A DNA stretch of 64,000 nt. It comes from Eledone cirrhosa. Its lineage: Eukaryota. The DNA lies in contig OZ024747.1 of the NCBI GenBank assembly GCA_964016885.1, forward strand, positions 36,456,001 through 36,520,000, in the 5' to 3' direction. Each line of letters begins with the position of its first letter. Position 1 is the stretch's first letter. The translations under genes were made by a program, and so were the position numbers. Of this stretch, positions 22,346 through 59,640 are shown one piece after another. Under the pieces are notes generated by a model. The model searched no databases, had not been told where the DNA came from, and was given only the letters and a program-made list of their open reading frames with translations.

Positions 22346-22491
22346 TATATATATAGTAGAAGGGATATTTAATTTGTTGGAAATACAACAAATATAAATG
22401 TTTATAACTGATTCAGAGCACTCGACAGATTTCTGGATTAAACATTCAATGATAATTAAATAAATGGAAATTATATTTATAAAACCATATT

Positions 22492-22554
22492 TATTCTATT
22501 ATATATATTTCAAGGGTACGAACAAACTTTGGTACGCTTTCATCAGATAACATA
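22492..22554 (-). ncRNA. Minimal type I hammerhead
   Basis: tatgttat-CTGATGA-aagcgtaccaaagtttgttcgtaccctt-GAAA-TATATATA-atagaata. Confidence 0.75.
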
Positions 22555-22713
22555 CAAAAAGAGTTTTATAAATTTTGACACAGCCAAGGAATTCATACCT
22601 TACCCGTGGAATTTTCTTTCTTGGGTAGTCAAGAAAATTCAGCTACCCAAGAAATTTCAACTGATAAGGTATGATTTCCTTGGCTATGTTTAAAATTTAT
22701 AAAACACTCTTTA

Positions 22714-22775
22714 TATTTTATCTGATGAAAGCGTACCAAATTTGTTGGTACACTTGAAATATATATAATAGAATA
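22714..22775 (+). ncRNA. Minimal type I hammerhead
   Basis: tattttat-CTGATGA-aagcgtaccaa atttg ttggtacactt-GAAA-T ATAT A TA-atagaata. 8-bp stem I, palindromic stem III, AUA cleavage triplet. Confidence 0.85.
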
Positions 22776-22831
22776 AATATGGTTTTATAAACATAATTTC
22801 CATTCATTTAATATCATTGTATATATATATT

Positions 22832-23280
22832 GAGTATATGTTAGTTGTTTACCGACACCTCAGTATGCAGATTGGAGCACTCGACGAAGTACCAGGCTGG
22901 TTTGGTTACTCTGGAGTAATGTAAAATAATTAATTCAACTATGTAAAATTTAGCTTCGTTTATTATAAATTATAGATATACTGCTATATATATTTCGGTG
23001 ACAGTCATCATTGGCTGTGACTTCTTCAGGTAGTTCGAATACTTCTGAGGAACTGGAATCATATGAATCCAGTTCTTCAGAGAAATAACAACACAATCAG
23101 GAGCTGGCCATATCGATGTATTGACGGAGTAAAACACACTTCAACAACATGTGTACCTGTCTTTCTCACACCAATTCGGACTGCCTGAAAAGGTCACAGC
23201 CAATGATGGCTGTGACCGAAATATATATAGCAGTATATATATAAACAAGCCAAATTTTACATATTTGACTTAATTATTAT
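22832..23280. mobile_element. Palindromic HHR element (family B), left arm internally deleted
   Basis: HHR on minus 22980-23034 (actac-CTGAAGA-..-GAAA-TATATATA-gcagt) and on plus 23180-23234 (CTGAAAA, 11-bp stem II). Apex ctgaggaactggaatcatatgaatccagttcttcag. Confidence 0.88.
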
Positions 23281-24140
23281 ATATATATATATATATATAT
23301 ATATATATATATATATATATATATATATATATATATATATATATATTTATATATATATATATGCATACATACATACGTACGTACATATATATAGATATAT
23401 ATACATATGCATACATACATATATATATATATATATATATATATATATATATATATATATATATATATATATATATATATATATATATATATATATATAC
23501 ATATGTGTGTGTGTGTGTCTGTCTGTGTGTGCGTGTTCGCGCGGCGCGCGTGTGTGTTTGTGAGTGTGAGTGTGTATGCAATTATATATAAATGAGAGTA
23601 TGTGTGTGTTTAGCTTAGAATAATGATATCACCATTTCCACATTTAGAATGATATTATAACGATCGATCTCTCAGATCCATGGCTATGTAGCTTTATCAG
23701 ATATCCAGCGTCAAGGGAACGCTTATTGTATCACATGAACATTTAATTGGCTGTCAACCTTGCCATACATGCAGCAAATATGATGATACAAAGGAAATTA
23801 AATGCAGTTACGTTTAGAATTTATCTGACCGAGCTGAACAAAACAGTACTTCAGTTGGTGAGTAAATTTCCTACAACGTAATTTCCTTCAAAGCTAATCT
23901 CGCACGTGCACGAGAAAGGAATTTACACATGAACACGCAGACACAAACGCACACACACACACACATCCACACATCTACACAGACACACACATACACACAC
24001 ACATATATATATATATATATATGTGTGTATGTATATATATTTATATATATATATATATATATATGTATATACACACACACACACACATATATATATATAT
24101 ATATATATATATATATATATATATATATATATATATATAT

Positions 24141-56087: not shown

Positions 56088-56290
56088 AAGGCCAGCGGAT
56101 TGGCAGTACCGGGGCAGGTGCCGAATAACATGTTGTGTGCCATATAGTTACTACCCGTTTAGGTACTGAGCTCAAATCCCGCCGAGTTTAGGTTTGCCTT
56201 TCATCATACGGGGTCGATAAAATAAAACACTAGTAACGCATTGGGGACGATGTAATCGACATTTCCCTCCAGTAAAATTGCTGGTCATGT
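56088..56290 (+). mobile_element. Deu/Nin-domain SINE
   Basis: ggattggcagta..gagctcaaatcccgccgag..gcctttcatcatacggggtcgataaaataaa. Confidence 0.8.
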
Positions 56291-58039
56291 TCCTATATCC
56301 AAAAGCTTTATACTGAATATGATTTTAGCTTTCGTATCGGCTGTATCCATATTATCATTAAGTTTTCGACAGCTCTATCGTTGGCTCTCAAACACGTTTA
56401 ATACACATTGATTACCTGAGATACATTTAGCTATATATTTTGGATGTCTATACATTGTTGATGTTTTGTCGAGTATTTCTCTTTATATGTTAACGTCATA
56501 GTTGTTTATCGTGCAATAAGATTAAACTGAAGAGCTGAACATGTCAACTTTGTCAGGTGTGCCTTTCAACCACTCTTGGCGACCTCCATATGATTCGGTA
56601 AAAGCTATAACCAGGGGGTTCCGGCAGTTTATGATCAAAATGTCTAATTTATGTAATTAGTCCGTTGTCAAATTTTAAAATATGTCCGATCTATGCATAG
56701 TACTTAAGGATATTATCTTCGGGTCATATCCTAATATTTTTTAGATGAAGAAACAACAGAAATTGTGTGGTTTTATTTAAGTGCCAAACGATATGGTGGG
56801 ATTCATTTTCAGGTCAAAAAGAAGGAGGTATGCGTATTATACAATATAATAACGATCGTTGCAATGTATTATGATTTTTCTGGAGAATGAATGGGATGGA
56901 ACAAAACATTTATAATATGTTTTGAAACGAGTTTTAGGAAAATATATTACATATGCGATTTTAAATATTTTTTCTATATTTTAGACTGAAAGAATATATT
57001 ACTGAATTTTAGTTTTTTCCTATTATATTCAAGCAGTTATTAATTGCTTAGTACTTAATATATTGATGGTTAAAACATGAAATATCAAGACGGGCGTAGG
57101 GGATCCAAAGTCAGAACGTAAAATTCTGTAACTAACATACAGCAAGAGTTTTAGACTAATGGTGTGTCCTTTCTAAAAACCCTAAATTAGTTTAATTGAT
57201 TTCGAAATTGAGTTGACATAGTTTGCGTACTTTGTTATAACTGCCAATAATTCTCACATTATGATTAAATACAATGCAGACTGTTGTAAAATCATACTTA
57301 CATTTCATTAGGCATAAAATCAACTTTCATTGAGCAGATGAGGATCCATTTCAAGTAACCATTCGAGTATATAATTATGCTGACGACGTCACCCAAGGAA
57401 TCCAAGCTGATCTGAATTATGAACGAAGAAAGACTAAAGCAAAGTGTGTTAAGAAATTTCATTAATTCTACTGCAATTTTTTCCAGTTACTTGTTCAATT
57501 ACCGAGTTTCTCCTCGGTAATTGAATATAATAAGCTCAACCGATCGAGGTCAGGGCTTATCAAAGAGGAAAGGTTCAGAAAAAAAAACTTGTAAGAGATG
57601 AACATGACATAGAAGAAACAAAAAGAACATATATATAAAGTGAAACTAAAAAATTGTGGGGTAGAAGTGAGCTAATAGCACTGAAATAAAACTACGCTGA
57701 AAATAGGTAATGAAAATACATTCGAGGTAGGATAAGTACAAGTAAAATATTCAAGGTAACTGAAATTAAAAGTAATAATGAGATTGTGTTTTATGATTTT
57801 TCAAATTTTTATCCATTCATAATTTATTTTCAATAATTATTATTTCGTTGCTATACACACACCCACACACATATATATATACTTTTTATATATATACTTC
57901 TCTGTTAGTTCAATATTATTGTTTGTATTAAAACTCGTGTTGTATACACTGAATGCTAATTACATTTTCTCAGCATTTGAAAGCATTTTGGTAATTTAAA
58001 GTGTCGCTATTTCCCTTTCAACGTGCTGAATGTAACAAT

Positions 58040-58326
58040 GTGATTACAATTCAGGGATAAATGTATATACAAAAATATACAGGCACGTAAAACATACTCG
58101 AGAAACAATCCCATCCGCAACAATCAGCTGCTTACAAAATTCGACTCCGGCACATCAAAATAAAAAAATACATCACTTCGAAAATCTCATCGTTCCGGAA
58201 ACTCCTCCGTAAATCCAAGACAAATCACAACTACCACAATACTGGCCAGAAATACGGGAACCTTGCTGATCAAGGAGACCCTATTAATAAAGCACCTAAA
58301 ACCCTCCATTAATAATAAAACTGAAC
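58040..58326 (+). mobile_element. Decayed Penelope-type GIY-YIG C-terminal fragment
   Basis: LLIKETLLIKHLKPSINNK resembles the L.I.E.L.I...KP.LN end of PLE endonucleases. Confidence 0.55.
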
Positions 58327-58334
58327 AGATAGAG

Positions 58335-59317
58335 TACCAATGGCTCATTCCATCCGGTCTTCTTAGCAAAAGGAACCCCACCACCCGCTCAGTAATACGT
58401 GGGAAAAGAAGTACAAAAGAATATATATGGCTCCTTAACTGTTTTATCATCGCGGTGGACTATTGTATGCGCCTTGCGCTTGAGAAACACCAGAACTCTT
58501 GCTTTACTGAAGCACTGGCTCAGAACAGGAGAGTTAAGGCGAAAGAATAATCAGATGCTGAATTTGCTGACGACATACTTCTAGTGACAAACTCAGTGAA
58601 GGAGGCAGAGGAGTTGATGCAGGAGGTGGAGACTATGTCGATGAGTGTGGGGCTGAGTGTATGAGATTAAGACGAAGTAACAGGTAGAGAATATTAAGAA
58701 GCCAGAGAAGATTATGATTGTAGGCGGGAAGCCGCTAGAATTGGTTGAGGACTTCCGGTATCTGGAAGCAAAGATTGGGAACACAGAGAGTTGCTGTGGT
58801 TGAGGGGAAGAGCAAAGCCTGGGTGGCGTGCTAGAGTTTAAGATCGGTATGGAAGTTGGACCTTTGTAAAGACCTGAAAATCCGTTTCTTCGTTGCTACA
58901 GGGGAGTCTGTGCTACTGTACGGGTCTTAATCTTGGACACTGAGCAAGAAACTCACTCAGATGGTGGATAGGTGTTATACGAGAATGCTGAGGATGTCTC
59001 TGAACATTAATCAGTATACACTGAGAATAAAGAACCCAGAGCTGTACGGGAGCCTCCCAAATGCCAGCTCGAAATGAATACAGAGGAGATTCAGGTTAGC
59101 TAGACATGCTCACCGAATTTGAGAGTTGACACTGCACTCAGTTATCCTGTGGGAGCCCCTGCATGGACACACTAGAAGAGTGAGACCGATTTGACATATG
59201 TTGATGCCCTCAGGACAGTCACAGGTCTCTTGGAGACGCAGAACATGGCAGCGATGATAAGGGACAGAGACCGCTGGAGAGAACTCGTCCATGGATCTCG
59301 GGAATTTCACCCACCCT
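58335..59317 (+). mobile_element. Non-LTR retrotransposon RT 3' fragment (RTE group), degenerate
   Basis: Broken frames FIIAVDYCMR, EFADDILLV, VEDFRYL, LKIRFFVATGESVLLYGS*SWTL, CYTRMLR, ELYGSLP, VILWEPLHG; ends at (TA)n. Confidence 0.85.
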
Positions 59318-59349
59318 ATATATATATATATATATATACATATGATTAT

Positions 59350-59640
59350 ATATTAAAATAACAGATTAAAGTTTATACAAAGAATCGCCTCGTTCACCCT
59401 TAGCAGGATCTTCTGAAATAATATATATATTATCTGATGAGAGCGTACCAAAGTTATTTGGTACCCTTGAAATATATATAATAAAATAAATATGTTTTTA
59501 TAAATATAGTTTCCATTTATTAATATCATTGATATTATACTCCAGGAAACTTTCGAGCGCTTCGAATCTATTATAAATAAATTTGTTGAATTACCAGCAA
59601 ATTAAATATCTCTTTGCTTATATATATTTATATATATATT
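59350..59640. mobile_element. Back-to-back pLTR fragments from two HHR families
   Basis: 59350-59420 (-) matches the CAGAAGA family of 36176-37197. 59428-59630 (+) matches the 22356 family, with intact CTGATGA..GAAA-TATATATA at 59428-59488. Confidence 0.8.

Follow-up and report, generated by a model that had tools for sequence, protein, structure and literature searches.

The 64,000-nucleotide window analysed here (Eledone cirrhosa, contig OZ024747.1, positions 36,456,001 to 36,520,000; source genome 3.0 Gb) contains six fold-back insertions, E1 to E6, which on the evidence of their sequence are insertions of Penelope-like retroelements (PLEs) with protein motifs of the Hydra clade. According to our analysis, such insertions pair one arm that has a short 3' end with one arm that has a long 3' end in a nearly obligatory manner, and both arms of one insertion carry one haplotype. 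We propose, at a probability of about 70%, that each insertion results from twin target-primed reverse transcription from two fixed points of the RNA, the two products being joined head to head. We regard the families as new, with Hydra-clade motifs, and their architecture as the known PLE plan of an inverted copy and a tail.

Two arms with two fixed 3' ends

The initial annotation of the window had described six fold-backs with inverted arms, outward-facing hammerhead ribozymes (HHRs) and (TA)n flanks, belonging to three sequence families. All of this was confirmed: family A comprises E1, E4 and E5, which represent three subfamilies, family B comprises E2 and E3, and family C comprises E6. 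By the motif scans of this analysis, on which all HHR assignments rest, each arm of E1-E6 bears one outward-facing type-I hammerhead-like motif, and (TA)n runs flank the insertions.

22356..22819, E1, family A1 mini fold-back: the left arm is the long, tailed one and the right arm the short one; HHR cores at 22546 (-) and 22722 (+), with cleavage predicted after 22500 and 22767
22832..23277, E2, family B2 mini fold-back: the left arm is the long one and has lost an internal piece between the apex hairpin and the HHR; cores at 23029 (-) and 23185 (+, CUGAAAA); apex TCATATGA at about 23059-23066
24142..24670, E3, near-perfect palindrome of family B3: the short arm lies left and the long one right; apex centre 24355/24356; cores at 24235 (-) and 24476 (+), both CUGAAGC
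34728..35725, E4, family A4 fold-back: long arm left; cores at 34915 (-) and 35635 (+)
37323..41447, E5, family A5 fold-back: the arm with the short end spans 37323-39922 (2.6 kb), the arm with the long end 39923-41447; cores at 37422 (-) and 41256 (+)
41734..52920, E6, family C fold-back: long-ended arm from 47962 to 41734 (-), short-ended arm 47959-52920 (+); cores at 42074 (-) and 52727 (+)

Arm identity is 87.6% in E1, 82% in the portion of E2 remaining after its internal deletion, 98.6% in E3 and 89.4% in E4, and reaches 98.9% and 95.7% in the outer arms of E5 and E6. The short arm of E4 has a 25-nt deletion immediately upstream of the core, and the short-ended arm of E6 an internal deletion of about 1.47 kb at 48367/48368. 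Counted from the predicted cut, the TA run has its first base at 53/145 (short/long) in E1, 49/155 in E2, 50/151 in E3, 43/140 in E4, 51/143 in E5 and 71/208 in E6, so that the long end exceeds the short one by 92, 106, 101, 97, 92 and 137 nt, respectively. An excess of about 90-130 nt had been claimed earlier; the offset is present in all six insertions, and its measured range is 92-137 nt.

The same two ends recur elsewhere in the genome. When queries excluding the ends were used, family C arms ended at +71-76 or +209-210 in 30 of 30 loci, and most A5-type arms had their ends at about +50 or +141-142 (the aligner runs on into TA, printing 55-58 for ends at about +50). The two offsets recur in dozens of loci across many contigs, and backwards-read control patterns gave no matches, so that chance does not explain them. 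The near-constant offsets between cleavage site and arm end, which had been noticed in the window, are thus borne out as two end classes per family (every one of the C loci, most of the A5-type), and two fixed ends per family support the suggestion of two defined priming points. It was further suggested that one point is terminal and one internal, which did not hold: in tandems the long point lies upstream of the next open reading frame (ORF), by about 46 (A5), 54 (B) and 151 (C) nt from its ATG, and therefore the tandem transcript has both points in its interior.

The arm ends are the known ends of the PLE 'tail', here 92-137 nt apart. As far as the cited parts of the sources go, here and below, a two-point tail has already been described (PMC11167929, PMC8557442), its length is given as 30-40 bp (PMC8557442), and both of its ends are start sites of the reverse transcriptase (RT) in vitro in Poseidon (PMC11167929). 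Each end has two or three nucleotides, TA or TAT, in common with the target repeat. Three tails are delimited in the window:

24577..24670, + strand, family B tail between the short and the long start points, with two predicted hairpins and the GTCGAGTGC motif
41356..41447, + strand, family A5 tail
41734..41870, - strand, family C tail, 137 nt

The GTCGAGTGC motif is common to otherwise unrelated tails of families A and B (22356-22447, 24577-24670, 41356-41447). An ACTC..GAGT stem with a terminal hairpin is visible in the tails of A, B and C, with weak folding z-scores of -0.07 to -2.18.

The pairing of these ends was counted family by family. A set of 49 B palindromes was assembled from 35 of the 40 top matches and the first 15 loci of the exact apex pattern, one duplicate (L259, identical to L059) being removed. 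Both ends could be classed in 43, and 42 of these are long+short, one is long+long and none is short+short (p=5e-12); two others have one unclassed end and four have only one arm. Long+short pairs make up 21/21 in family C (15/15 among close pairs) and 21/21 of A5-type pairs with two terminal ends, the latter by reading the alignments. The script count for A1 was 17/20, with L086 scored as long+long, where by eye a deleted short arm is found. One short and one long end per insertion is therefore near-obligatory.

That both arms carry one haplotype is evident from their substitutions: at the 49 B loci 85 are present in both arms, 30 of them private to one locus, next to one-arm changes numbering 36 on short and 27 on long arms, and in family C the arms of one insertion have up to 32 variants in common (L177). 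As for the 5' reach, in ten readable C insertions the short-ended arm goes further in six, the long-ended one in three, and in one they are equal. One haplotype in both arms, together with the fact that either arm may be the longer, fits two separately primed cDNAs and argues against a single snap-back.

Parents, ribozymes and the apex

Autonomous tandem parents were found for A5, B and C. The A5 parent has a 3.9-kb unit with a 736-aa ORF, complete at L206, and the C parent a 6.67-kb unit with an 813-aa ORF, intact in the tandem array C1:183.73-183.76 Mb; the two ORFs are 46% identical over the RT. Remnants of both lie in the window:

38999..39943, - strand, 5'-truncated A5 ORF in E5 with CxCx5C linker and GIY-YIG endonuclease
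45729..47997, - strand, family C RT-endonuclease ORF in E6, 5'-truncated and frameshifted

Partial tandems of the kind that form pseudo-LTRs (pLTRs) are seen as read-through in A5, B and C, the B tail continuing into the ORF at 79 loci vs 0 for a control pattern. Both the 736-aa and the 813-aa ORF are single and combine an RT with a C-terminal GIY-YIG, recognised through GLYRDD and I/V-Y...Y(I/V)G motifs. The RWK-type motif reads RRMRWK in B, RIRWR in A5 and RVRWR in C (R for K), and SDKT, with DKT replacing DKG, is present in A5 and C. The same two families have a CxCx5C linker, lack CCHH in the GIY-YIG domain and have CxxC and CxH around E and N, and family B also has CxCx5C and CxxC. Insertion into (TA)n agrees with the Hydra clade as well; unit sizes of about 3.9, 4.1 and 6.7 kb exceed the <3 kb of that clade, which PMC8557442 words as a tendency and not as a criterion. 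The best named homologs are Argonauta proteins at 37-41%, hypothetical or misnamed. A Neptune assignment was dropped, as the CX2-5CxxC linker and the endonuclease CCHH of that clade were not found. Family C is abundant, with at least 242 + 4,425 arms.

At the tandem junctions L205, L201-L204 and L219-L238, a (T/A)GCTCC motif stands no more than about 10 nt past the long site in all three parents, followed by TTGAGCGCTT in those of A5 and B; it is possibly a recognition signal for the RT.

As to the ribozymes themselves, hammerhead is absent among the 150 of 165 Rfam matches listed, which are microRNA-like matches to TA repeats and hairpins. Off-core letters occur in both arms of E3 (CUGAAGC) and in the right arm of E2 (CUGAAAA); the majority core of family B is CUGAAGA, with 63/65 arms conforming at G8 and 62/65 at A9. 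Helix III is palindromic, TATATA or CGATCG, as in the minimal type-I HHR of a pLTR, and family C is atypical in its stem II of about 110 nt (identical in six loci) and in having no pair adjoining the core. A minimal HHR with palindromic helix III has been described for PLEs (PMC4209133). We also considered a slippage specific to short arms, in the form of a 10-nt deletion in stem II of family C, seen at first in seven short and no terminal long arms among top matches; an unselected sample of 30 refuted it, with 16 long, 12 short, 1 tandem and 1 other, and with discordant pairs in both directions.

Because the arms run past the predicted cut, with no clustering of ends there, instead of stopping at it, the ribozyme is likely a passenger in the insertion step; HHR cleavage is dispensable in vitro for Poseidon (PMC11167929). 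Each strand carries one sense HHR and only one strand carries the tail, and the full E3 transcript is predicted to fold into a hairpin of about 215 bp (-395 kcal/mol) that buries the ribozyme. The notion of 'double hammerheads' with transcripts equivalent from either strand is therefore unsupported, and we infer that an HHR dimer would more likely form between tandem units.

The apex of the fold-backs behaves as a fixed 5' stop, best seen in family C:

52720..52726, + strand, putative capped start of family C, the 5' stop being the A of TTTCATTATTT, which lies 7 nt before CUGA

Among 105 family C arms, a sample that includes 20 loci selected as close pairs, 31 stop exactly 7 nt before CUGA, 3 at -8 and 2 at -9, and 32 run through; without such selection, 23/60 arms have their stop at -4 to -9. 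At other places in the genome, mini fold-backs of family C have this TTTCATTATTT stop as their apex. A G precedes the stop in 12/31 arms, vs the native C in 41/41 read-through arms (p=0.007), and some C junctions repeat the first 13-15 nt several times (L343). In family B the variant junctions run as far as the A of TTCATATG, and a non-native G is present in several of them (L122, L134, L239); the standard B apex derives from a 4-nt ATAT overlap at this A. In A5, 23/42 arms have stops spread over -79 to -101 around TTTCACTG, near a native hairpin, and in A1 a G precedes 7/12 arms, a count that lacks a native control; no A1 parent was found among the loci examined. The apex stops of B, C and A5 have TCA at all three sites, which we take to be initiator-like. 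This fixed TCA stop and the frequent extra G point to the apex as a likely capped transcription start in the pLTR and to the minis as run-off products, the putative capped starts being the A of TTTCATTATTT in C, the A of GAATTCATATG in B and a place near TTTCACTG in A5. An extra G marks the cap in L1 insertions (PMC11702581), and the transcription start of Penelope lies in its pseudo-LTR (PMC2377424).

The long start has a peculiarity of its own in family B, where in-phase (TC)n of 2 to >18 units stands before (TA)n in 15/60 non-tandem long ends (for instance L063, L064, L066, L068, L255, L257) and in 0/64 short ends (Fisher p=7e-6). The template at this start is AAAAUCUAUCUAG, and the tract matches its dinucleotide. 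No (TG)n was found at any of 49 A5 long ends, and (CA)2 or more is present in 4/83 in family C. The simplest reading, at which these tracts hint, would be reiterative copying at initiation in a telomerase-like manner, priming by (GA)n-ended targets being an alternative. The reverse transcriptases of PLEs are the sister group of telomerase, and given this kinship a reiterative repeat addition by them would be of real interest. We would tentatively go further and imagine an asymmetric RT dimer that always fires once per end of a structured tail, copies to the RNA cap and reiterates the template dinucleotide at the long start, adding (TC)n in B and perhaps much of the flanking (TA)n. If this is true, the insertions would be a direct record of the PLE mechanism, the short palindromes would map the promoter and the elements would be microsatellite builders.

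Mode of insertion and origin of the short palindromes

In the proposed twin-primed mechanism the enzyme would cut the (TA)n repeat and copy the RNA from both broken ends, with the far end of the tail as the start of one cDNA and its near end as that of the other. The two cDNAs would then be united at their 3' ends, either bluntly or through microhomology. That the arm ends are RT start sites is suggested by the behaviour of Poseidon in vitro (PMC11167929) and by the 2-3 nt TA/TAT match to the target. Copies begun in the tail closest to the 5' end would reach the end of their template after about 200-330 nt, repeatedly giving short palindromes, and those begun in a downstream tail would give the kilobase forms.

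Self-priming at palindromes has been proposed in PMC3846280, and a snap-back of this kind, in which one cDNA or an antisense template folds back at a native palindrome, would leave only one end as an RT start. The apexes indeed match native short palindromes in B (TCATATGA) and in A5 (hairpin 41162-41178), and the arms are homogenised. We nevertheless consider it very improbable, since the short-ended arm often lies further 5' than the long-ended one (6/10, a four-unit tandem among them), a large number of junctions are either blunt or filled and show an additional G in both arms (L134, L332, L343, L375), and solo short-ended and solo long-ended arms both occur. It is hardly conceivable that the fold-backs are assembly artefacts, or that they are miniature inverted-repeat transposable elements (MITEs) or foldback DNA transposons with TA as their insertion site: inverted arms, TA flanks and high copy number would be expected of them, but the ends are asymmetric by 92-137 nt instead of forming symmetric terminal inverted repeats, the arms are pieces of RT-encoding parents, there are private changes between arms and the flanks vary among loci.

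Several points speak against twin priming or weaken it. L051 is long+long, and solo arms exist; L263 and L265 have an arm asymmetry found at no other locus, which suggests copying across the apex or from two different units; and the symmetric variants could also come from gene conversion between arms. The samples are top-scoring or first-listed loci and not the whole genome, in addition to the selection of close pairs in family C. Of the 12 extra Gs in that family three (L303, L313, L369) are readable as partner sequence, an A or T is found at 19/31 C stop ends, and structural stall or palindrome capture could explain some apexes in A5 and B. Finally, a Pfam search on the full ORFs matched neither RT nor GIY-YIG endonuclease.

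The initial annotation had also envisaged the short protein-free forms as a mobile retrozyme-like family, which should give many near-identical copies with one apex at unrelated loci. Taken at face value such copies exist: all 40 scored matches span the E3 apex at 96-100%, and the exact B3 apex pattern occurs at about 185 loci (184 forward, 175 reverse) vs 175 parent-type arms running past the apex. The E3 apex is the native TCATATGA of the B parent, and the markers of the palindromes are also found in parent-type copies, 15C+69C in L224 and L228, 23A+36C+78C in L223 and 32A in 6/29. The pattern for parent-type arms excluded 15C and 23A by design, and therefore their zero counts in that set are uninformative. 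Family C minis and long copies have haplotypes in common, and the junctions of A1 and C vary copy by copy. From the markers in parents and from these varying junctions we infer that the short palindromes are polyphyletic and are likely re-made at each insertion as recurrent run-off products of full-length parents. A self-propagating retrozyme-like unit does not agree with markers residing in autonomous parents and junctions re-made per insertion, and the haplotypes in common with parents argue against a separate lineage.

On this idea, transcripts of the palindrome, or of its tailed half, would be mobilised in trans by the enzyme of the parent, making a self-propagating non-autonomous family. 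The number of B3-apex loci relative to parent-type arms (about 185 vs 175) and the asymmetry that L263 and L265 have in common would suit it, the standard B apex retains TCATAT on both strands (PLE promoters can be internal, PMC2377424), and a transcript of the tailed half of a mini would yield the same products. We find it unlikely, in view of the markers common to palindromes and parents, the predicted single long hairpin of the full transcript and the absence of the head-to-tail retrozyme plan; moreover, C minis are about as frequent (38/60 arms stop near the core) despite their scrambled junctions, and one-arm variants are nearly all private.

Known systems and neighbouring features

The insertion unit of endonuclease-containing (EN+) PLEs comprises a pLTR, an adjoining inverted 5'-truncated copy and a 30-40-bp tail at one end (PMC8557442, PMC3846280, PMC2377424). 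The insertions described here are alike in their tandem units, inverted truncated copy, tail at one end, HHR in the pLTR and palindrome at the inverted junction; they differ in the 92-137-nt tail, in a pairing quantified as near-obligate, and in that ORF-less head-to-head pLTR pairs form a large share of copies. In Poseidon PAc of Anolis, studied in vitro (PMC11167929), two internal RT starts likewise bound the tail and HHR cleavage is unneeded; the PAc tail lies within the ORF, whereas here it precedes the ATG, and the starts here match the target by 2-3 nt TA/TAT. In the Poseidon system both strands are cut and extended, the protein being a predicted dimer, and the portions of PMC11167929 covered give two start sites without an inverted-copy model. 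With the C-terminal EN+ PLEs of the Hydra clade (PMC8557442) our families have in common RWK/RWR, DKT, CxCx5C, absence of CCHH, CxxC + CxH, (TA)n targets and the HHR, a likeness of motifs alone; they differ from that clade, generally <3 kb, in units of 3.9-6.7 kb with long untranslated regions and in at least 4,600 family-C arms.

Schistosoma has opposite-strand pairs of minimal HHRs 100-700 bp apart (PMC4209133), likewise short and head-to-head with two HHRs, which were ascribed to truncated PLEs; ends, apex and pairing are what the present analysis adds to that account. Twin priming in L1 (PMC11702581) is similar in the second RT primed from the other DNA end, in junction microhomology and in the 5' G, but the second primer of L1 anneals anywhere upstream, while here both starts are fixed and the same region is copied. 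Non-LTR retrozymes (bioRxiv 10.64898/2026.07.22.740005) are also short, protein-free and PLE-derived with a type-I HHR; they are head-to-tail tandems with two sense HHRs, unlike the head-to-head units with one sense HHR per strand found here.

The formation of the inverted copy and tail of PLEs is called undefined in PMC8557442, and among the papers listed in literature searches, titles and abstract openings gave no account of obligate long+short pairing, of a cap G at PLE junctions or of reiteration by PLE RT, although supplements and subscription papers may differ. What the present analysis adds is a pairing rule in numbers, a 5' stop that resembles a cap site and the repeat tracts, through which the mechanism of PLE integration becomes testable. 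Thousands of young copies give sharp rules: each insertion has a long start and a short one, the 5' stop is fixed, and repeat tracts match the template at the start site. Such palindromes could easily be misfiled as MITEs or retrozymes.

The elements insert into each other's (TA)n flanks and so form clusters, for example L033, L057, L067, L069, E1-E2-E3 and E5-E6. Among the B2 palindromes L112-L140, older copies are often missing part of one arm, with varied breakpoints, which is consistent with palindrome decay. Further features of the window are the following:

59424..59618, + strand, solo long-ended family A arm, core at 59434, predicted cut after 59480
16005-19231, 25408-25975 and 34455-34707, older family D fold-backs with the long/short plan of E1-E6, in which the tail measures about 55 nt and the cores, CUGA.GAG GUCACA, are HHR-like; GIY-YIG remnant at 18450-18839; in the copy 34455-34707 the long arm is the tail alone
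41524-41715, between E5 and E6, mini fold-back of about 190 bp that belongs to a fifth family and bears a compact HHR-like core at 41651 (-)
36178-36340 and 37033-37195, another inverted pair between (TA)n runs, with a shorter copy at 59347-59426
62409-62582 and 63210-63386, direct repeat pair 800 nt apart with a CUGACGA core in each, which looks like a pLTR tandem or a retrozyme-type unit
4201-4700 and 19243-20365, old and degraded inverted-arm elements with arm identity of 73-80%, in which an HHR was not found
27669-30065, - strand, ORF of 798 aa for a LINE-type reverse transcriptase (RVT_1), unrelated to the fold-backs

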